From positions 1,952,001 to 2,016,000 of the forward strand of contig CAVYGB010000008.1 of NCBI GenBank assembly GCA_963767925.1: DNA of 64,000 nt, given 5' to 3'. A model generated the notes under the pieces. The model saw only the letters and a program-made list of their open reading frames with translations, was not told the origin of the DNA and did not search any database. Position numbers and translations under genes: made by a program. Shown here piece after piece: positions 47,491 to 57,437 of this stretch. Position 1 is the first letter of the stretch. The number at the start of each line of letters is the position of its first letter. Origin of the DNA: an uncultured delta proteobacterium. Its GTDB lineage: Bacteria; Myxococcota_A; Polyangia; Fen-1088.

Positions 47491-48422
47491 CCTTCGACTA
47501 TACCGCGGAGGCGGCTGCCCGCGGGGATCACCCTTCCCGCCAGCACCGCCGCCGCCGCGAGCCGCTTGCGGCCGGGGAGCTGCAGCTCGGCGAAGGCCAC
47601 CGCCCCTTGCCCGCAGGCCACCAGCAGGCCCTCGGCGCGGGCGCCCAGGACCTCTCCGGGCTCCCCCCGCTCCTCGCTGACGGTGGGGCCGAAGAGCTTC
47701 AGGCTCTCCCCCTCCAGCGTCGCGCTGGGACCGGGCCAGGGATCGACCCCCCGGGCCTGCGCCGAGACCAGCCGGGCCGGCAGGCGGAAGTCGAGCAGCC
47801 CGTGCTGCTTCTCCAGGGGCGGCGCGAGCGTCGCCCGGGCGTCGTCCTGAGGCTCGGGCGACACCTCACCCCGGCCGATGCGGGGCAGGGTCTCGAGCAG
47901 GAGGTCCGCCCCCAGGGTGGACAGCCGCTGGGCGAGCGAGCCCGCCGTGTCGGTCTCCGAGATCGGCTCCTCGCGCCGGGCCACCACCGCCCCGGTGTCG
48001 AGGCCCTCCTCGACCCGCATGATCGAGACCCCCGTGCGCGACTCGCCCCGGATGACCGCCCACTGGATGGGCGCTGCCCCCCGGTAGGCGGGCAAGAGGG
48101 AGGCGTGGACATTCCAGGGACCTCGCGGCGGGATCTCCAGCAGCGCGGGGGGCAAGATGCGCCCGTAGGCCACCACCACGAACAGGTCCGCCGATTGCGC
48201 CCGCAGCTTCTGCTGAAGCTCCGGCTCCTTGAGGCGCAGGGGCTGCTCCACCGGGATGCCGAGCTCGAGGGCGAGCTGCTTGACCGGCGGGGCGGTGAGG
48301 GTCCGGCCGCGGCCTGCTGGCCGATCGGGCTGGCTCACCACCAGGACCACCTCGTGCTGCTCCGCCACCCGGCGCAACGAGGGGACAGCGAACTCCGGGG
48401 AGCCGAAGAAGACGACCTTCAC
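47487..48422 (-). CDS. fmt: Methionyl-tRNA formyltransferase
   Basis: FFGSPEFA, QPDRPAGRG, NVHASLLPAYRGAAPIQW and GLDTG motifs. Confidence 0.96.
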   Translation of the reverse strand: MKVVFFGSPEFAVPSLRRVAEQHEVVLVVSQPDRPAGRGRTLTAPPVKQLALELGIPVEQPLRLKEPELQQKLRAQSADLFVVVAYGRILPPALLEIPPRGPWNVHASLLPAYRGAAPIQWAVIRGESRTGVSIMRVEEGLDTGAVVARREEPISETDTAGSLAQRLSTLGADLLLETLPRIGRGEVSPEPQDDARATLAPPLEKQHGLLDFRLPARLVSAQARGVDPWPGPSATLEGESLKLFGPTVSEERGEPGEVLGARAEGLLVACGQGAVAFAELQLPGRKRLAAAAVLAGRVIPAGSRLRGIVEG

Positions 48423-49648
48423 GGCCGGCGGCCCGTCGGGGGCAAGAGGTGCTCGCGATAACGGCGGCGCAGGGCCTCGTCACCGAGGACCCGTCCGGCC
48501 TCGGCCAGCACGTCGCGGACGATCTCCAGCTCGCGAGCCAGCGTGACCGCCACCTCCGGATCGACCCGCTGGGGACCGATGTCCTCGGAGAGCCGACGGT
48601 GGGCCCGGGCTACCTCGGCCGCGGTCGCCTCCCGGGCCACCCCCAGGATCTGGAAGTAGTCGGCGTCCTGACTGAGGGCATAACGCGCCAGGATCCGCTC
48701 CCGATCGACCCGCTGGTCGAAGGTCCGCCGGCCGCGAGCCCGGCCCGGCTTCACCGGGGTGAGGAGGCCGAAACAGACGAGCACCAGCGCGAGGCGCGCG
48801 ACGAGGTCGTCCGGACGTCCGCTGGTCCGGGCGATGTCCTCCAGGGAACGCCGGCCGTCGAACCAGCCGAGCAGCTCCCGCTCGGCGGGCTCGAGGGCAA
48901 GCTCGGCCAGCAGGTCGGTGGCCTCCGGCCCGCGCGCGGCGGCGTAGAGGGTCGTGCCCTCGCCGAGGTGACGCTGGATCCGGGTGGCCGGGAAATCCCG
49001 GCGCAGGGCCTCGCGCACGAGGGCCGCCGGGTGCCGCAGCAGGCGGGTCTTGCGCGGCTCGAGCTCGGAGCGCGGGTCGAACCGGAAGCGCCCCTCGGTC
49101 CAGGGAAACAAGGACAGGATGATCTCCTCGTGCTGGGTCCGGAGCGCGGGCATCAGCTCGCCCGGCTTGAGCAGCCCCAGATCCACGAGCACCGCGCCCG
49201 TGCGCCGTCCGCTCCCGGCGGCCTGGCGCGCCACCCGACCCCGCTGATCGCTGTCGAGGCGGCCCTGCCGCAGCAACATCTCGCACAGGCGGTCTTCGAG
49301 CGCGCTGGAGGCCGCGTAGACCGGACGCCCGGCATCGAAGTGGATGCTCTTCTCCACCTCGCGCGCGCGCAGCGAGAGCTGTCCCGTCCAGACCTCCTGG
49401 TAGGCCCGGCCGAGCAGCAACGCCACGTCCGTCTCGGCCAGCTCACCGGCCCGGGCCAGGGTGGGCTCTGGCTCCGGGTCGGGCGCGCCCACCGTGCTCG
49501 CCGTCGCCAGCAGCTCGGCATCGAGCTGATCGTCGATCTCCGCGGTCAGGCGATCGGGCAGCGACGGCGCCAGGCCCGGCCCGGTCCCATCGCGGTCGTC
49601 ATCGGCGCGTGCCCGCCGCATGCGTCCCCGGGCCTCGGTCGTCGCCAT
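48419..49648 (-). CDS. DUF4388-type domain protein with C-terminal J-like domain
   Basis: WTGQLSL..KSIHFDAGRPVYAAS and LFPWTEGRFRF; DYFQILGV J-domain start, with HPD replaced by GPQ. Confidence 0.75.
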   Translation of the reverse strand: MATTEARGRMRRARADDDRDGTGPGLAPSLPDRLTAEIDDQLDAELLATASTVGAPDPEPEPTLARAGELAETDVALLLGRAYQEVWTGQLSLRAREVEKSIHFDAGRPVYAASSALEDRLCEMLLRQGRLDSDQRGRVARQAAGSGRRTGAVLVDLGLLKPGELMPALRTQHEEIILSLFPWTEGRFRFDPRSELEPRKTRLLRHPAALVREALRRDFPATRIQRHLGEGTTLYAAARGPEATDLLAELALEPAERELLGWFDGRRSLEDIARTSGRPDDLVARLALVLVCFGLLTPVKPGRARGRRTFDQRVDRERILARYALSQDADYFQILGVAREATAAEVARAHRRLSEDIGPQRVDPEVAVTLARELEIVRDVLAEAGRVLGDEALRRRYREHLLPPTGRRP

Positions 49649-49722
49649 GACCTTGATCAAAGCACGCGGCACGGGTCCCCGTCGACCATCTCGCGGCTTA
49701 CACCCCCGTACAGGGGCCTCGC

Positions 49723-52185
49723 TCAGAGCACGCTCTGCGGGTCGACGTCGACCACCAGCCGGACGCCGCCGGGAAGGACCCCGGCCGCCGCCTGCCGGGC
49801 GGTCGCCGCCAGGGCGGCGCGGTCGGCCGACCCCAGCCACACCTGCCAGCGGACCTGGCCGCGCAGGAACGCGATGGGCGCCTCGGCCGGACCCTTGACC
49901 GCCACTCCGGCGCCCGCGGCCAGGGCCCGTTCGGCCACCAGGGTCGCCGCCCGCCGGACCTCGGCGCCGTCTTGGCCCTCGAGCCTCAGGGCGATCAACC
50001 GGGCAAACGGCGGGTAGCTGGATTCCTGCCGGCGGCTCAGCTCACCCCGCACGAAGCCCTCGTAGTCGTGGGTGGGCAGCGCCACGACGGCCGGGTGGTC
50101 GGGGGTGAAGGTCTGGACGATCACCCGCCCCGGACGGTCCCCCCGCCCGGCCCGGCCCGCCACTTGCTCGAGGAGCTGGAAGGTCCGCTCCGCCGCCCGG
50201 AAGTCCGGCATGTGCATCCCCTGGTCGGGCAGCAGCGCGCCCACCAGGGTGACCCCCTCGAAGTCGTGCCCCTTCGTCACCATCTGGGTGCCCACCAGGA
50301 TGTCGACCTCCCGGCGCTGGACGCGGGCCAGCACCTGCTCGAGCACGGCGCCGCTGTTGCCGCCGGTGCTGTCCCGATCCAGCCGGGCCACCCGGGCGGT
50401 CGGGAACAGCTCGCGCACGAGGGTCTCCACCCGCTCGGTGCCAGCGCCCAGCCGCTCGAGCTTGGGGCGCGCGCAGGACGGGCAATTCACCGGCGGCGCC
50501 AGGGTCAAGCCGCAGTAGTGGCAGGCCAGCTCGGCGCGCGCCCGGTGGAAGGTCATCGACACCGCACACTGGCTGCAGCGCAGGACGTGACCGCAGGCCC
50601 GACAGAGCACCAGCGGGGAGAAGCCCCGCCGGTTGAGGAACAGGATGGCCTGCTCGCCCGCCTCCAGGGTCTGGCGGACGGCCTCCAGCAGACGCTTGGT
50701 GAACAGCCCGTCGGCCAGGAGCGGCTCGCGCCGGAGGTCCACGATCTCCACCGGCGGCAAAGGGCGCAGGGCGGCCACCGGGTTGGCCCGGGTGGGGAGG
50801 AGCAGCCGCCGGTAACGGCCTTGCTGGACGTTGTGCTGGCTCTCGAGCGAGGGCGTCGCCGAGCCCAGGACGGCTACCGCTCCCGCGCGCTGCGCGCGCA
50901 CCAGGGCCAGGTCGCGCCCGTGGTAGCGGAGCCCCTCCTCCTGCTTGAACGAGGAGTCGTGCTCCTCGTCGACAACCACCACCCCGAGGTCCCGCACGGG
51001 GGCAAACACCGCGGACCGCGCGCCGAGGGCGATCCCCACCTCGCCGGCGCGCAGGCGCCGCCAGGCGGTGCGGCGCTGGGCGGGTGGCAGGCCGCTGTGC
51101 AGGACCGACACGTCGTCGCCGAAGCGGGCCCGGAAACGGGCGGCGAGCTGGGGGGTCAGCGGAATCTCGGGGACCAGGACCAGGGCGCCACGGCCCTGCC
51201 GGCGCGCCTCGGCGATGAGCCGCAGGTAGATCTCCGTCTTGCCGGACCCCGTCACTCCCTGGAGCACGAAGGCCTGGAACCGGCCCCGCTCGGCAAGCGC
51301 GGCCGAGAGGGCCACCAGCGCCTCGGCCTGGTGGGGGTTGAGCTGGGGGACCTCCGCCGGCTGGTCCGGCCCCGGCGGCCGCGGGTCGGAGCGCTCCTCC
51401 AGCCGCACCACCCCCGCCCGCTCGAACGTGCGCACGGCCTGGCGCTCCCGCCGGTCCAGGCTCGCGACGGCGAGCCCCTCGCCGGCCTGCTGCAGCCGCT
51501 GGTAGAGCGCCCGCGCGATCTGCTGCCGGGGCCCGAAGCCGGGAGCCGGCCGATCCTCGACGACCCTGGCCCAGAGCTGGACGCGGCCCTGGCTGCGCCC
51601 GGCGATCTGGTCGCCCACCTCGACGTAACCCAGCTCGACGAGCCGGGGCAACCGGGGCTCGGCCCGGGTGCCGGCCAGCCCCCGCAGGCCCAGCCCCTGC
51701 CCTTGCGAGAGCCGGCGCAGCAGCTCCCGATCGTGCTCGTCCAGGCCCAGGCCGACGAAGCCCGCCTTGCCCTCCTCGTCCCGCCGCAGGAACAGCCGCC
51801 CCGCTTCGGTCAGCCGGATGCGGCGGGCGGCGGCGGCCCGCTCGCCCTGGGGCAGGGCCGCCCTCAGCACCTCTCCGAGCGGGGCCAGGTAGTAGCCGGC
51901 CGCCCAGCGGCACAGGTCCAGGACCTCCGGTTCCAGGGCGGGCTCGTCCTCCAGCACCGCCTCGATCGCCCGCACCTCCGCCGGACCTTCGGTCGGGTGA
52001 CCGACGACGAACCCGGTCACGCGCCGGCTGCCCAGGGGGACCACGACCTGCGCCCCGAGGGACGCGCGCTCGCCGAGCCGCGGATCGCGGTAGGTGAAGA
52101 CGGCGAACGGAGGCAGGGCCAGGGCGACCTCGAGGAGGCCGTCGGCCGCCTTGCTCCGCCGCTCCGCCCGAACGCCCTCGGTCAT
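49723..52185 (-). CDS. priA: Primosomal protein N' (replication restart helicase)
   Basis: GVTGSGKTEIY, DEEHDSSFKQ, two CxxC Zn clusters and QVAGRAGR. Confidence 0.96.
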   Translation of the reverse strand: MTEGVRAERRSKAADGLLEVALALPPFAVFTYRDPRLGERASLGAQVVVPLGSRRVTGFVVGHPTEGPAEVRAIEAVLEDEPALEPEVLDLCRWAAGYYLAPLGEVLRAALPQGERAAAARRIRLTEAGRLFLRRDEEGKAGFVGLGLDEHDRELLRRLSQGQGLGLRGLAGTRAEPRLPRLVELGYVEVGDQIAGRSQGRVQLWARVVEDRPAPGFGPRQQIARALYQRLQQAGEGLAVASLDRRERQAVRTFERAGVVRLEERSDPRPPGPDQPAEVPQLNPHQAEALVALSAALAERGRFQAFVLQGVTGSGKTEIYLRLIAEARRQGRGALVLVPEIPLTPQLAARFRARFGDDVSVLHSGLPPAQRRTAWRRLRAGEVGIALGARSAVFAPVRDLGVVVVDEEHDSSFKQEEGLRYHGRDLALVRAQRAGAVAVLGSATPSLESQHNVQQGRYRRLLLPTRANPVAALRPLPPVEIVDLRREPLLADGLFTKRLLEAVRQTLEAGEQAILFLNRRGFSPLVLCRACGHVLRCSQCAVSMTFHRARAELACHYCGLTLAPPVNCPSCARPKLERLGAGTERVETLVRELFPTARVARLDRDSTGGNSGAVLEQVLARVQRREVDILVGTQMVTKGHDFEGVTLVGALLPDQGMHMPDFRAAERTFQLLEQVAGRAGRGDRPGRVIVQTFTPDHPAVVALPTHDYEGFVRGELSRRQESSYPPFARLIALRLEGQDGAEVRRAATLVAERALAAGAGVAVKGPAEAPIAFLRGQVRWQVWLGSADRAALAATARQAAAGVLPGGVRLVVDVDPQSVL

Positions 52186-52201
52186 CGATCCGCCGCGGGG
52201 C

Positions 52202-53317
52202 TCAGGCCCGCTGCCACCCGGACATGCCGCCGGTGGGTGGCGGCGCCTCCGGTTCGCTGGGGGAGGCCTGGCTGGCGGCGGGCGGGCTGGATCCGGTGTA
52301 GACGACGCGAAGGATCTCGGCGACCGCCTCGTAGAGCGCTTCGGGGATCTCGTCCCCCTCCTCCACGTCGCGCAGAGCACGCGCCAGGCTGACGTCCCGG
52401 AAGATCGGCACGCCCGACTCGCGCGCGATCTCCTTGATCTTCTCGGCGAGGATCCGTTCGCCCTTGGCGACAACGAGGGGGGCCTCCTGCGAGTCCTTCT
52501 CGTAGCGAATGGCGACGGCGATGTGATCGGGGTTGACCACCACGAAATCCGCTTTGCGAACGGCGTTCAGCATACGCTGCTGGAGCAGCTCCTTGTGCAG
52601 CCGCATCCGCTCGTGTTTGTGATGCGGGTCACCTTCCTGCTCCTTGTGCTCGCGCTTGACCTCCTCGCGCGTCATCCGCAGCTCCTTCATGTGCCGGTGA
52701 CGCTGCCACAGGAAGTCTCCGAAGCCGATGACCGCGACCACCAGCACCATCCACTGGCCCAGTCGCCCGCTGGCGTGCCCCAGCACCACCAGGAGCTCGC
52801 GAGGGGTGGCCCCCGAGAGCTGGGTCAATGACCGCATGAGCGGCTCGATGGCCGCGTAGGCCACCGCGGCAGCGAGGCCGATCTTAACGAAGCCCTTCAC
52901 CATCTCGACCAGCGACTGCATGCTGACCACCCGCTTGAAGTCGGGCATCAGCTTCTGGGTATCGAACTTCAGCGCCTCCAGCGCGAACACGCCGCCCGTC
53001 TGCATGAATCCGATCCCGATGGCCGCCACCACGGCCGCGATGAGCGGGGCGACGAGGGCGTTCCGCAGGGCCATCAACCCCCGGGTGAGCTGGGGCACGA
53101 CCGTCTTTTCGCTGGCCGCCACCTCGAGGGCGGTCTTCATGTGCGCGAGCAGGCCGCCGATCCATCCCTCCGCGCTCACGCTCAGCACCATGAAGATGGC
53201 GATGAAGACCACCCCCCCGGTCAGATCGCGGCTCATCGCGACCTGACCCTTCTTGCGGGCGTCGGTCAGCCGCTTGTGAGACGGTTCTTCTGTCTTTTCG
53301 CCGGCCGACTCCGCCAT
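52202..53317 (-). CDS. flhB: Type III export switch protein FlhB/SctU
   Basis: EKTEEPSHKRL, MTREEVKREHKEQEGDP, the NPDH autocleavage-type motif and PLVVAKG. Confidence 0.93.
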   Translation of the reverse strand: MAESAGEKTEEPSHKRLTDARKKGQVAMSRDLTGGVVFIAIFMVLSVSAEGWIGGLLAHMKTALEVAASEKTVVPQLTRGLMALRNALVAPLIAAVVAAIGIGFMQTGGVFALEALKFDTQKLMPDFKRVVSMQSLVEMVKGFVKIGLAAAVAYAAIEPLMRSLTQLSGATPRELLVVLGHASGRLGQWMVLVVAVIGFGDFLWQRHRHMKELRMTREEVKREHKEQEGDPHHKHERMRLHKELLQQRMLNAVRKADFVVVNPDHIAVAIRYEKDSQEAPLVVAKGERILAEKIKEIARESGVPIFRDVSLARALRDVEEGDEIPEALYEAVAEILRVVYTGSSPPAASQASPSEPEAPPPTGGMSGWQRA

Positions 53318-53338
53318 GGTTGAGGCCTCCCCTGCCCC

Positions 53339-54130
53339 TCAGCGCCACACGGCGAAGGCCCGCTCCACCATGACGTACCAGCCCCGGAAGGCCCCGCTGA
53401 GCGCGCCCTCGATCCCGCCCAGGCCCACGAGGACGATCCCCACCCCGGCCATCGCCTTGAGGGGCATGCCCACGAAGTAGACCGGGATCTGCGGCGCCAT
53501 CCGGGCGATGGCCCCCAGCACGAGATCGGCCACGAACAGGGCCACGATGGCCGGCGCCGCCAGGGCCAGGGTCGACTCCAGCAACATCGCGGTGGTGATC
53601 ACGACGAGCCGGGCCGCCGCCGCCAGGCTCTCCGGGGTGCCCGACAGGTCGAGGGGGACCGCCTGGTAGCTCCGGGCGAGCGCGGTGGCCACGTGGCCCA
53701 CTCCGCCCATCTCCAGGAAGATCACGGTCGCCAGCAGCAGGAAGATGTCCCCCAGCGGGCTGGCCCGGCCCTCGGTGATCGGGGAGATCACCTCGGCCAT
53801 GTTGGCACCCCGCAAGGTGTCGACGAGGCGGCCCGCCGACTCGGCGGCCCGGAACACCGAGGAGCCCACGAAGCCGACGGTGAAGCCCACCGCGGTCTCG
53901 CGCGCCAGCAGCAGGATCCAGTAGAGCCCCCCCGTCTGGGTCGGCAGGGCGGGCATCACCACCGGCAAGCAGATGGCCGAGAGGGCCAGCCCCAGCCCCA
54001 TGCGCACCTGCGCGGGGACGCTCTGGCCGCCAAAGGCGGGGATCAGGAACGCGATCGGGATGGTACGCATGGCGCCCACCCCCAGGGCCCAGAGCCAGCG
54101 GTCCAGGTCCCTTGGCAGCAAGTCCAGCAT
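53339..54130 (-). CDS. fliR: Type III export gate protein FliR/SctT
   Basis: Multi-TM protein; AESAGRLVD and ARMAPQIPVYFVGMPLK motifs. Confidence 0.9.
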   Translation of the reverse strand: MLDLLPRDLDRWLWALGVGAMRTIPIAFLIPAFGGQSVPAQVRMGLGLALSAICLPVVMPALPTQTGGLYWILLLARETAVGFTVGFVGSSVFRAAESAGRLVDTLRGANMAEVISPITEGRASPLGDIFLLLATVIFLEMGGVGHVATALARSYQAVPLDLSGTPESLAAAARLVVITTAMLLESTLALAAPAIVALFVADLVLGAIARMAPQIPVYFVGMPLKAMAGVGIVLVGLGGIEGALSGAFRGWYVMVERAFAVWR

Positions 54131-54143
54131 GGGCCCGTCGCGG

Positions 54144-54422
54144 TCAGCGCAAGGTGGACACCGAGGCCAGGACCGTCTGGGTGAAGCGCAGGAGCTGAGC
54201 GCCCAGCAGCGGCCCGAGCGCCACCAGCACGATCACGACGATCAGCAGCTTGGGCACGAAGGAGACCGTCTGGTCCTGGATCTGGGTGGCGGCCTGGAAC
54301 ACGCCCACGAAGAGACCTATCGCCAGGCTCGCGATCAGCGGCGGCGCCGACAGGACGATCACCAGGAGCAGACCCTCCCGGATCACCCGCAAGACGACAT
54401 CGAGAGCCGAGACGCTAGACAT
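54144..54422 (-). CDS. fliQ: Type III export gate protein FliQ/SctS
   Basis: GLFVGVFQAATQIQDQTVSFVPKL. Confidence 0.93.
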   Translation of the reverse strand: MSSVSALDVVLRVIREGLLLVIVLSAPPLIASLAIGLFVGVFQAATQIQDQTVSFVPKLLIVVIVLVALGPLLGAQLLRFTQTVLASVSTLR

Positions 54423-55128
54423 AACTCTCCACCAGTCCCCGCAGGATGAGTTGCCAGCCGTCCGCGAGCACGAACAGCAGGAGCTTGAACGGAAGAGAGA
54501 CCGTTGTCGGCGACAACATGTGCATGCCGAGCGCGAGCAAGATGTTGGCGATCACCATGTCGACGACCAGGAAGGGTACGAACAGCAAGAACCCGATCTC
54601 GAAGGCCCGTCGGAGCTCCGAGGTCAAGAAGGCGGGCACGATGATCAGGAGGTCCCGATCGGTGATCCCGGCCCGCTCGGTGGGGGCGCGCATGCGCAGA
54701 GACAGGCCGTGGAACAGCGCCCGGTCGCGGGCGTTGCTGTGCTTGAGCAGGAACTCGCGCAGCGGCTCCTTGACCCGCTCGGCGGCCTGCTCCATCACGG
54801 CGATCGACTGGGCGCTCATCACCGAAGCGCCGGACCCCCGCTCCAGCAAGGGCTCGATCGCCTTGTACATGCGCTCACCGGTCGGCGCCATGACGTAGAG
54901 GGTGAGCAACATGGCCAGGCCCGTGATCACCTGATTCGGGGGGATCTGCGGGGTGCCCAGGGCGCCCTTCAGGATGGAGAGCACCACGGCGATGCGCACG
55001 AAGCTCGTCACCAGAAGCAAGACGAACGGCAGCAACGACAGCGCCGCCATCGCGATGATGAGCGTCAGGGGCCGGGTCGTCAGCGAGCCGCCGCGGTCGG
55101 CGGCCTGCGCCAGCGCCAGTAGGGTCAT
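54415..55128 (-). CDS. fliP: Type III export gate protein FliP/SctR
   Basis: TSFVRIAVVLS..PPNQV, PAFLTSEL and SLPFKLLLFVLADGW motifs. Confidence 0.95.
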   Translation of the reverse strand: MTLLALAQAADRGGSLTTRPLTLIIAMAALSLLPFVLLLVTSFVRIAVVLSILKGALGTPQIPPNQVITGLAMLLTLYVMAPTGERMYKAIEPLLERGSGASVMSAQSIAVMEQAAERVKEPLREFLLKHSNARDRALFHGLSLRMRAPTERAGITDRDLLIIVPAFLTSELRRAFEIGFLLFVPFLVVDMVIANILLALGMHMLSPTTVSLPFKLLLFVLADGWQLILRGLVESYV

Positions 55129-55162
55129 AGTCCGGGTCCTCCAGGGTTGGGCGCGCGCACGC

Positions 55163-55585
55163 TCAGCCCTCGTGTTCGGTTTCGGGCCGGCTGGGCAGCG
55201 GCTGCGACCGCTCCATCGGGCCGGGACGGGCCAGGATGCGGCTCAAGATCTGGTTGAAGCGACTCCGGGTGGCGCGACCAAGCCGGCTCGCCGCCGGCTC
55301 CTCGACCTTCACCTGGCTGGGGTCGACCTCCGCCAGCAGGGTCATTCCGCCGTCGCTGGCGCCGACCAGGAAACAGCGCCCGGCTGCCTCCAGCAGGAAA
55401 AACGACCGCTTGGGCTCAGGCGAGCAGCGGGCGATGACCCGAATTGGACCGCCGCCGGGACCCATGCCCCGGCGGGATACCCACTTCAGAACGACATACG
55501 CCAGGAGGCAAACCAGTCCCAGCGACAGGAAGCTGAGCGCGACAGAGCCTCCCAGGCCTGGAATTTCCGCAGCCTGAGCGTCCAT
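55163..55585 (-). CDS. fliO: FliO-like export gate chaperone
   Basis: Single TM followed by IRVIARCSPEPKRSFFLLEAAGRCFLVGAS, a FliO pattern; directly upstream of fliP. Confidence 0.8.
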   Translation of the reverse strand: MDAQAAEIPGLGGSVALSFLSLGLVCLLAYVVLKWVSRRGMGPGGGPIRVIARCSPEPKRSFFLLEAAGRCFLVGASDGGMTLLAEVDPSQVKVEEPAASRLGRATRSRFNQILSRILARPGPMERSQPLPSRPETEHEG

Positions 55586-55629
55586 AGGAGCCTGGTCGTC
55601 TTACCACAGGCCCCCCTTCCGGCGGGAAG

Positions 55630-56295
55630 CTACTTTTTCTTGGCCTTAACGGACTCGGACTTTCCCGCGGCCTTCGCCGAGGGCTTGGCCTTGGCCGAAG
55701 GACCGGTGGCCTGCTTGGCCCGCTGCTTGGCGGCGCCGCGGGTCCCCTCGTCGTCGGAGGACTTCGCCTTGGCTGCCTTGGCAGGCTTCTCGCCCTTTTC
55801 AGCCTTGCCACCGGCGGCCTTCTTGCCTGCGGAAGCCCCCTTGGCTCCCGCCTCGGGCTCCGGCTGCTCCGCCACCGCTGGCTGACCGTCGGGGATCAGC
55901 TCGAGGAGCGAGATCGGCGCCGCGTCGCCCGGCCGGTTGCCGATCTTGACGATGCGGGTGTACCCGCCCGGTCGCCCGAGATAACGGGGGCCGATCTCGT
56001 CGAACAGCTTGACCACCGCACCCCGGTCCCGCACCCAGCGACGGGCCATGCGAACCGCGTGAACGACGCGGGCCTTCTCCTCGCGCGTCCGCGACTCCGG
56101 CTCCTTGGTGAGCACGTCGCCCAGCCGCCGGGCCAGCGTGATGGTCCGCTCCGCGATCCGCCGGGTTGCCTTCGCCTTGGCGTCGGTGGTTCGGATGCGC
56201 TCGTGCGTGAACAGCGAGGCGATCAGGTTGGAAAAGAGCGCCCGCCGGTGAGCCGACGTACGCGATAAATGGACTCCAGCACGTTGATGTCGCAT
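55630..56295 (-). CDS. rplQ: 50S ribosomal protein L17 with Lys/Ala-rich C-terminal extension
   Basis: MRHQ..LSRTSAHRRAL, RIRTTDAKAK and RPGGYTRIVK..RPGDAA motifs. Confidence 0.96.
   Translation of the reverse strand: MRHQRAGVHLSRTSAHRRALFSNLIASLFTHERIRTTDAKAKATRRIAERTITLARRLGDVLTKEPESRTREEKARVVHAVRMARRWVRDRGAVVKLFDEIGPRYLGRPGGYTRIVKIGNRPGDAAPISLLELIPDGQPAVAEQPEPEAGAKGASAGKKAAGGKAEKGEKPAKAAKAKSSDDEGTRGAAKQRAKQATGPSAKAKPSAKAAGKSESVKAKKK

Positions 56296-56399: not shown

Positions 56400-57437
<1,038 letters not shown>

Follow-up and report, generated by a model that had tools for sequence, protein, structure and literature searches.

A stretch of 64,000 nt (hereafter the window) from an uncultured delta proteobacterium (GTDB lineage Myxococcota_A, Polyangia, Fen-1088; NCBI GenBank assembly GCA_963767925.1, contig CAVYGB010000008.1, positions 1,952,001 to 2,016,000) was found to carry five genes for the export gate of a system for type III secretion (T3SS). 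The genes, fliO, sctR (fliP), sctS (fliQ), sctT (fliR) and sctU (flhB), lie on the same strand between rplQ, the last gene of the ribosomal alpha operon, and priA, with short spacers at both ends (Table 1). This arrangement had been described in an earlier examination of the letters alone (the sequence-only reading), and it was borne out by coordinates and profile matches. Genes were named from their matches to Pfam and NCBIfam profiles, and all positions in Table 1 follow the numbering of the whole window. The sctS gene overlaps sctR by 8 nt.

Table 1. Genes and spacers of the export gate locus in window coordinates
Feature	Position	Strand	Profile matches or source
rpoA, RNA polymerase alpha subunit, gene 4 of the alpha operon	56400..57437	-	Pfam RNA_pol_A_bac, RNA_pol_L, RNA_pol_A_CTD
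rplQ, ribosomal protein L17, last gene of the alpha operon	55630..56295	-	PF01196 105 bits; TIGR00059 112 bits (cut-off 70)
rplQ-fliO spacer, 44 nt (rplQ TAG to fliO ATG)	55586..55629	-	read from sequence
fliO-like, 140 amino acids (aa), gate assembly helper	55163..55585	-	PF04347 40.3 bits (cut-off 22); TIGR03500 45 bits, under cut-off 55
sctR/fliP, 237 aa, gate subunit	54415..55128	-	PF00813 227 bits
sctS/fliQ, 92 aa, gate subunit	54144..54422	-	PF01313 90.5 bits
sctT/fliR, 263 aa, gate subunit	53339..54130	-	PF01311 165 bits
sctU/flhB, 371 aa, switch subunit	52202..53317	-	PF01312 351 bits
sctU-priA spacer, 16 nt (sctU TGA to priA ATG)	52186..52201	-	read from sequence
priA, replication-restart helicase, ATG at 52185	49723..52185	-	PriA_3primeBD, DEAD, Zn_ribbon_PriA, PriA_C; TIGR00595 593 bits

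Among the NCBIfam models, those of the Sct type were slightly ahead of their flagellar counterparts for SctR, SctT and SctU, whereas the FliQ model outscored the SctS model for SctS. SctR exceeded the cut-offs of NF009438 (EscR/YscR/HrcR, 258.7 bits) and TIGR01102 (SctR, 226.2 bits), and its score of 215.5 bits with TIGR01103 (FliP) was just under the cut-off of 217.45. SctT scored 154.9 bits with the SctT model versus 137.4 with the FliR model, and SctU 327.3 bits with the SctU model versus 304.3 with the FlhB model, none of these four scores reaching its cut-off. The motif NPDH was present at the autocleavage site of SctU (residues 267-270), a site of the NP(D/E/T)H kind that is also found in flagellar FlhB. 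A search of a protein-cluster atlas with SctU returned generic SctU-named clusters only.

Family searches of the whole genome gave no FHIPEP, YscJ/FliF, FliI/YscN, FliN-type, FliH, SctC-type, needle or rod/hook match within the window, so that the sequence-only reading was right to list no flhA/sctV, ATPase, ring, rod, hook, needle or secretin gene there. Its further proposal of a stand-alone, minimal export module did not hold, as sctV, sctL-sctN, sctQ and sctI-sctJ were identified elsewhere in the genome and are conserved with the gate. The source genome (9.34 Mb in 13 contigs, 84% complete) harbored this second, Sct-type set at four loci besides the gate, that is, at five loci in all, on two contigs and up to megabases apart. 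The sctV gene (PF00771) was located on contig C2 (C2:1269278-1271284) between hisD and an M16 peptidase gene, and the C-terminal 484 aa of its product scored 396 bits with the hrcV model versus 306 with the FlhA model. In the locus between bipA and surA, sctL (PF02108, 70 bits) was directly upstream of sctN, whose product scored 611.2 bits with TIGR02546, over the cut-off of 604.75, while the FliI models stayed under their cut-offs. The sctQ gene (PF01052, 67 bits, cut-off 23.8; SctQ model 91 bits versus FliN model 43) adjoined a glgA-like gene and was preceded by a candidate sctP, an open reading frame (ORF) with a weak FliK/SctP-like end. At the remaining locus, beside pspA and holB, a FliA/WhiG-like sigma gene was accompanied by a divergent sctI and by sctJ; SctJ matched PF01514 (73.5 bits, cut-off 24.4) and scored 143 bits with the SctJ model versus 31 with the FliF model. 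All ten SctI orthologues matched NF038054 (best E 7.5e-05), member 1 scoring 14.9 bits versus a cut-off of 39. Every scattered part scored higher with the Sct model of NCBIfam than with the flagellar one.

Genes for a secretin and a needle were also sought in this 84%-complete genome. The SctC secretin model TIGR02516 gave seven matches at four loci, the best with 100.8 bits versus a cut-off of 238.45, and none was near type III genes. For the needle protein SctF, PF09392 gave no match at E values up to 0.1 in a search in which short proteins are easily missed. No rod/hook protein was found outside the flagellar clusters, and a profile of the SctI-like proteins gave nothing meaningful against solved structures. 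A 302-aa ORF before sctL matched no Pfam family. The sigma gene before sctI-sctJ (C8:3090295-3091050, plus strand; L025:8295-9050) matched TIGR02479 with 148 bits, below the cut-off of 189.6, and is distinct from the flagellar fliA at C8:569463-570194. A PilZ gene is also located near sctJ (L025:6699-7202).

An apparently complete flagellar set was present on the contig of the window (C8, about 500-580 kb), including flagellin, hook-associated, ring, rod and switch genes, fliA, flhF and flhA (motor genes were outside this check) and a fliO-P-Q-R-flhB gate of its own. The relation between the two gates was examined in trees of concatenated segments of the P, Q, R and U proteins delimited by hidden Markov models, which were obtained by quick IQ-TREE searches with Shimodaira-Hasegawa-like approximate likelihood ratio test (SH-aLRT) support. 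Tree 1 comprised 71 rows (LG+G4) and tree 2 comprised 66 rows (LG+C20+F+G4), the long, partial or odd sequences L216, L217, L248, L253 and L067 being left out of the latter. In both trees a flagellar clade of 30 rows (support 100) included the genome's own flagellar gate and excluded the window gate. The classical injectisome references (Yersinia, Shigella, a Salmonella plasmid, Bradyrhizobium, Burkholderia and Mycetohabitans) formed one clade with support of 100 and 99, from which the window-type rows were likewise excluded, and a branch with 96-97% SH-aLRT support separated flagellar and injectisome sequences from every gate of the window type, the Bradymonadia type or another Myxococcota type. 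With the root placed in the flagellar clade, this would agree with the published tree, in which the 'Myxo' group branches first among the non-flagellar systems (PMC3459982). Thus, with regard to a flagellar set elsewhere in the genome with which the window proteins might group, which the sequence-only reading had named as evidence against itself, an apparently complete set exists, but the grouping was not recovered.

Conservation of the parts was surveyed in 24 other genomes of the source genome's family (25 counting the source). Window-type orthologues of sctR, sctN, sctV and sctJ were each detected in 24/24 and that of sctQ in 23/24. The window-type and flagellar copies were told apart by identity, which for FliP was 52-89% versus about 43%; the window SctR itself is only 43% identical to the flagellar FliP of its own genome. 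Flagellar-type FliP, FliI, FlhA and FliF were not found in eight of the 24 genomes (G001, G002, G006, G016, G018, G019, G020 and G023; completeness 86-100%), in which the window-type parts were kept, apart from sctQ, which was not found in G020. The surroundings of the parts were conserved as well: sctL was paired with sctN in 11/12 family loci, sctQ stood beside a glgA-like gene in 13/14, a FliA-like sigma gene stood beside sctJ in 13/14 (with sctI detected between the two in ten of them), and the M16 peptidase gene stood beside sctV in 8/12. The reading frames of sctV were intact in relatives, which also share the fliO-like gene ahead of sctR. The five gate genes are under purifying selection, with ratios of nonsynonymous to synonymous substitution rates (dN/dS) of 0.16-0.33 against a same-genus relative, compared with 0.23 for rplQ.

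Dispersal of the parts was not confined to this family. Two further families of the window's class also had genomes with scattered parts, and in a complete 5.05-Mb genome of a Bradymonadia-like family (f25) sctJ and sctN were located at 0.88 Mb, sctV at 2.72 Mb and the gate at 4.59 Mb. The fliO-sctR-S-T-U operon type was present in 14/14 genomes of that family and in a metagenome-assembled genome (MAG) titled Bradymonadales (L043). The closest named record was a MAG deposited as 'Myxococcota bacterium', with 79% identity in SctU and the same synteny.

These data bear on the possibility that the window genes are a spare or specialised second flagellar gate, for example the remnant of a second flagellar system, feeding the flagellum encoded at C8 500-580 kb. 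Such an origin would accord with the apparently complete flagellar set in the genome, with the FliO gene before sctR, with the better score of the FliQ model and with the identity of the best matches in the PDB, which are the solved flagellar FliP and FlhB. The flagellar FliOPQR-FlhB of Salmonella and Vibrio (PDB 6f2d, 6s3l) comprises the same five families in the same order. However, the window gate was placed outside the flagellar clade, it was kept in the eight family genomes without detected flagellar-type FliP, FliI, FlhA and FliF, and its conserved partners scored as SctN, SctJ, SctQ, SctV and SctI rather than as flagellar proteins. Moreover, a FliO homologue is reported within both non-flagellar systems of Myxococcus xanthus (PMC12403147). 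A second flagellar gate is therefore highly improbable. The suggestion of the sequence-only reading that the gate has a role other than flagellum or needle assembly gained support from the same placement and retention, together with the failure to find a needle or secretin gene.

The synteny of rplQ, gate and priA, which the sequence-only reading had put forward for checking in relatives, proved to be conserved. The rplQ gene was upstream of the gate in 21 of the 25 family genomes (source included). Among the four in which it was not detected, three loci end at a contig edge and one (G018) had no rplQ in the stretch examined. Outside the family, one genome in each of three families (G027, G032 and G153) also had rplQ upstream, whereas no rplQ was detected ahead of the gate in G037, G039, G026 or G036, nor in any Bradymonadia-like locus. 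The priA gene directly followed sctU in 11 family genomes (source included) and in G027 and G032.

Transcription of the gate was considered from the spacers. As the sequence-only reading had noted, there is no terminator after rplQ: no minus-strand terminator-like site was detected in the rplQ-fliO or sctU-priA spacer, neither spacer folded better than shuffled sequences (z -0.39 for rplQ-fliO), and the small hairpin in the rplQ-fliO spacer lacks a U tail. This spacer contains a -35-like TTCCCG (55623-55628) and, after a 17-nt gap, a -10-like GGTAAG (55600-55605), 14 nt before the fliO ATG. The stretch CTGTGGTAAGACGACC of the spacer was identical in the same-genus relative, whose own spacer is 43 nt long, and in both genomes rplQ and fliO abut on the same strand with no terminator between them. 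In relatives, by comparison, TTGAC(A/G/T) followed after 16-19 nt by a TAA-containing hexamer (nnTAAn) was located 5-10 nt before the fliO ATG in 15/23 loci (14 by script and one by eye). Judged by its motifs, this element is a strong, nearly leaderless promoter of the sigma-70 type, and the TTCCCG/GGTAAG element of the source genome looks to us like a decayed copy of it. In the source genome, sctV is preceded by a similar arrangement (TTGACG-N17-GATTAT-N8-ATG). A canonical terminator after rplQ, consisting of a GC-rich hairpin and a run of 5-6 T, was found in 5/22 relatives' loci. The spacer was too short for both promoter and terminator only in the source genus and perhaps in G006, which has a 15-nt spacer in which no promoter was found.

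Other sigma factors were also considered. Searches for sigma-28 and sigma-54 promoters upstream of fliO, sctL, sctQ, the sigma gene, sctI and sctV gave weak matches only, with 2-3 mismatches. The -10 elements before fliO of the relatives are similar to CGATAA, but their TTGACA, which is invariant at 16-19 nt, points to the housekeeping sigma factor, and the idea of a dedicated regulon was dropped.

Because of the short spacer, the decayed -35 element and the lack of a terminator, read-through from rplQ into the gate and priA is plausible in the source genus; from these features we give co-transcription of the gate with rplQ an even chance. The description of the gate as wired into the alpha operon can thus stand as a plausible one for the source genus (spacer of 43-44 nt, no terminator), but not as the usual state of the family, given the separate promoter in 15/23 loci and the terminator in 5/22. 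The same evidence touches the view that the five genes form a stand-alone 'CORE' of FliOPQR-FlhB that needs neither ATPase nor rings nor FlhA, shares its expression with ribosomal proteins and is used, for example, in nanotube formation. FliOPQR-FlhB(-FlhA) sets have reportedly been tied to nanotubes. This view would fit the lack of other type III genes in the window, the tight spacers without a terminator and the adjacency to rplQ across the family, and a preprint describes, from many bacteria, structures of the inner membrane that are hat-shaped and akin to the core complex of the flagellum (10.1101/2021.09.03.458937). Nevertheless, Sct-type partners are conserved in the same genomes, most relatives have a promoter of their own in front of fliO and in some of them rplQ is followed by a terminator, and we regard a self-sufficient gate as very improbable.

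The explanation that we favor, with a probability of roughly three in four, is that the gate is part of a dispersed, non-flagellar type III machine. The window genes would encode the FliO-assisted SctR/S/T/U gate of a second, Myxococcota-specific, non-flagellar type III apparatus, whose remaining parts (SctV; SctL-SctN; the candidate SctP and SctQ; the products of the sigma-sctI-sctJ genes) would be supplied from four separately conserved housekeeping loci. Assembled into one machine, these would form a basal body in the inner membrane with a short inner rod and no injection needle, a form proposed because secretin and needle genes were not found. Its ATPase complex and the proton-motive force would drive cargo proteins from the cytoplasm into the envelope. 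With regard to the position of the gate, the insertion of the operon between rplQ and priA would date from an ancestor of several families, and the operon would have been retained there since. Adjacency with separate transcription would have come first, and insulation would have been lost later in the source genus, where the spacer is 43-44 nt, the -35 element is decayed and a terminator is lacking; there, the gate and the downstream priA would probably be transcribed at least partly by rpoA-rplQ read-through.

A more far-reaching version holds that the needle-less type III core is a constitutive housekeeping envelope machine, with every gene set among conserved housekeeping neighbours. Its gate would be driven in most relatives by the consensus leaderless promoter of the sigma-70 type and, in the source genus, would form one transcription unit with the alpha operon and priA, so that the supply of the gate would track growth rate; export through the machine might also serve as a checkpoint that frees sigma-28-type factors without a flagellum. 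The possible checkpoint is raised because a FliA-type sigma gene directly precedes sctI-sctJ. We consider this version as a whole unlikely.

Several observations weigh against a dispersed non-flagellar machine. The trees were quick searches without bootstraps, unrooted and with some long branches, and their rows include no named M. xanthus sequence. Solved flagellar subunits outscored those of Salmonella pathogenicity island 1 (FliP 174 bits versus SpaP 132; FlhB 165 versus SpaS 99). SctJ, SctQ, SctT, SctU and SctI were below the curated NCBIfam cut-offs, the sctP assignment is weak (E 0.021), and no SctD was identified in the genome. A generic secretin from one of the four other loci could serve the system. 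The SctU autocleavage motif was lost in 3-4 of 14 window-type copies. Finally, this assembly has the first approximately 600 bases of sctV in four different frames, and such frameshifts, if true, would mean that the machine is dead in this organism. We think that the breaks are an assembly error, since nearby genes on C2 also look broken, fliI of the flagellar set is likewise split, the genome reaches only 84% completeness and relatives have an intact sctV. The fliI gene (C8:507182-508461) is read in two frames, and several neighbours of sctV on C2 look truncated or fused; these broken genes fit frequent assembly indel errors, and real decay may be the alternative.

Taken further, the broken sctV frames, the SctU copies without the motif and the secretin and needle genes that were not found would suit a decaying relic, that is, the leftovers of a type III system that was formerly clustered, was dispersed by rearrangement and has ceased to work as a machine. 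The M. xanthus loci were themselves initially annotated as relics (PMC3459982). Decay is difficult to reconcile with parts that 23-24 of the 24 family genomes have kept in conserved places, with dN/dS values like that of rplQ, with the consensus promoter conserved before fliO and with the intact sctV frames of relatives. On this balance a relic is quite improbable, and the dispersed machine remains the preferred explanation.

The closest known counterparts of the dispersed machine are the needle-less, secretin-less type III systems of Myxococcota (PMC3459982; PMC10433427). The set resembles T3SS* (MXAN_2434-2464) and T3SS(2) (MXAN_5643-5654) of M. xanthus, a member of the same phylum, and the 'Myxo' group of Abby and Rocha 2012 (PMC3459982; PMC10433427; PMC10196010). 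SctRSTUV, an ATPase with SctL, SctJ, SctI, SctQ and a FliO homologue are common to the M. xanthus systems and the present set, which both lack secretin and needle and are both conserved over long evolutionary distances. The 'Myxo' group falls outside the classical injectisomes in the published tree, and so does the window-type gate in the present trees. In contrast, the M. xanthus systems are single clusters with conserved gene order, whereas here five loci are scattered among housekeeping genes, with the gate between rplQ and priA. SctD was not found here, the comparison being one of published composition. A role in prey lysis is known from M. xanthus only.

Compared feature by feature, SctR, S, T, U and V, SctN, SctJ and SctQ of a classical injectisome were present, and the secretin SctC, the needle SctF and a grouping with the injectisome clade were not found. 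Grouping and travelling with flagellar genes, expected of a flagellar T3SS, was not observed either: unlike the flagellar gate, the window gate lies outside the flagellar clade and is kept where no flagellar genes were found. The features of the Myxo/T3SS* type, namely export apparatus, ATPase, SctJ and SctI together with the lack of secretin and needle (PMC3459982) and a FliO homologue (PMC12403147), were all recognized, except for a single gene cluster with conserved order.

A needle-less T3SS* has also been reported in bradymonabacteria (PMC11509652), which share the fliO-sctR-S-T-U operon type and, in one complete genome, have the other parts far from the gate. The bradymonad-type loci differ in having no rplQ upstream, and sctJ and sctN are approximately 2 kb apart there versus approximately 2 Mb in the source genome. 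In Chlamydiales, too, core genes are distributed over several loci, and that system is reported to be constitutively expressed (PMC3459982). Unlike the present set, the Chlamydia system possesses secretin and needle, injects host cells, has several core genes per locus and belongs to the classical injectisome radiation. We regard the scattered set as a dispersed form of the needle-less type III system already known from Myxococcota; what is new is the stable dispersal over five loci and the place of the gate operon, with rplQ on one side and priA on the other. No description of an rplQ-linked or scattered Myxococcota type III arrangement was found in the open-access full text searched. In published surveys, type III systems were found mainly in the order Myxococcales among 17 genomes (PMC10196010), and in sludge MAGs at least half of the homologues occurred only in a Myxococcaceae bin (PMC11821767); these two papers do not describe an rplQ-linked scattered arrangement.

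A related system is kept across at least two Myxococcota classes with its genes stably scattered among housekeeping genes. Myxobacterial needle-less type III systems are regarded as standing near the evolutionary step between flagellum and injectisome, and to our knowledge only the clustered needle-less system of M. xanthus has been studied so far. Detectors based on gene clusters will tend to miss a scattered set or to call it incomplete, which may explain the reports that confine type III systems mainly to Myxococcales (PMC10196010). The relatives form a series, from loci with terminator and promoter, through loci with a promoter only, to the source genus with neither intact, in which the capture of an operon by a ribosomal operon can be tested. 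In addition, cultured Bradymonas-type strains carry the same gate type, so that the function of the scattered system is open to experiment.

Variation within the gate operon was also observed among relatives. The SctU motif was replaced (EPGV, GEGQ, EPGN) or lay in an alignment gap in G023 (L266), G032 (L269), G021 (L275) and G003 (L274), and it was NPDH, NPEH or NPTH in the other ten window-type copies, which suggests that the substrate switch is dispensable in some lineages. In families f7, f15, f17 and f18 of the same class (e.g., L201, L203, L205, L288-L293), a fliO-sctR pair was detected and sctS, sctT and sctU were not detected adjacent to it; the gate operon itself may be split in these lineages. 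One sub-clade of the family carries a PilZ-domain gene (PF07238, E ~1e-16) between rplQ and fliO (e.g., L265:1555-1953 and L284:1365-1757, both on the plus strand), and its domain hints that the gate operon receives a cyclic diguanylate (c-di-GMP) signal. In this sub-clade, two or three ORFs of about 190-330 aa without a Pfam match are also present between sctT and sctU (e.g., L265:4313-6479, plus strand; L263:1447-3958, minus strand), which could encode accessory parts or cargo.

The genes that flank the gate showed further features. The L17 protein encoded by rplQ (55630-56295, minus strand) has a C-terminal tail of approximately 85 residues that is rich in Lys and Ala and differs in length among relatives, and it matched the NCBIfam model 'L17, sunset domain variant' partially (113 bits versus a cut-off of 280). 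After priA, on the same strand, an ORF with a DUF4388 and a weak DnaJ domain (48419-49840, minus strand) is followed by fmt and rpe; the first 120 residues of the longest ORF at 48419-49840 resemble non-coding read-through. Further, many of the Myxococcota genomes of 4-10 Mb that were sampled (loci L221-L247) carried full flagellar-type clusters (fliM-fliN-fliO-P-Q-R-flhB-flhA-flhF), and flagella seem to be widespread among the uncultured members of this phylum, which is known for gliding.

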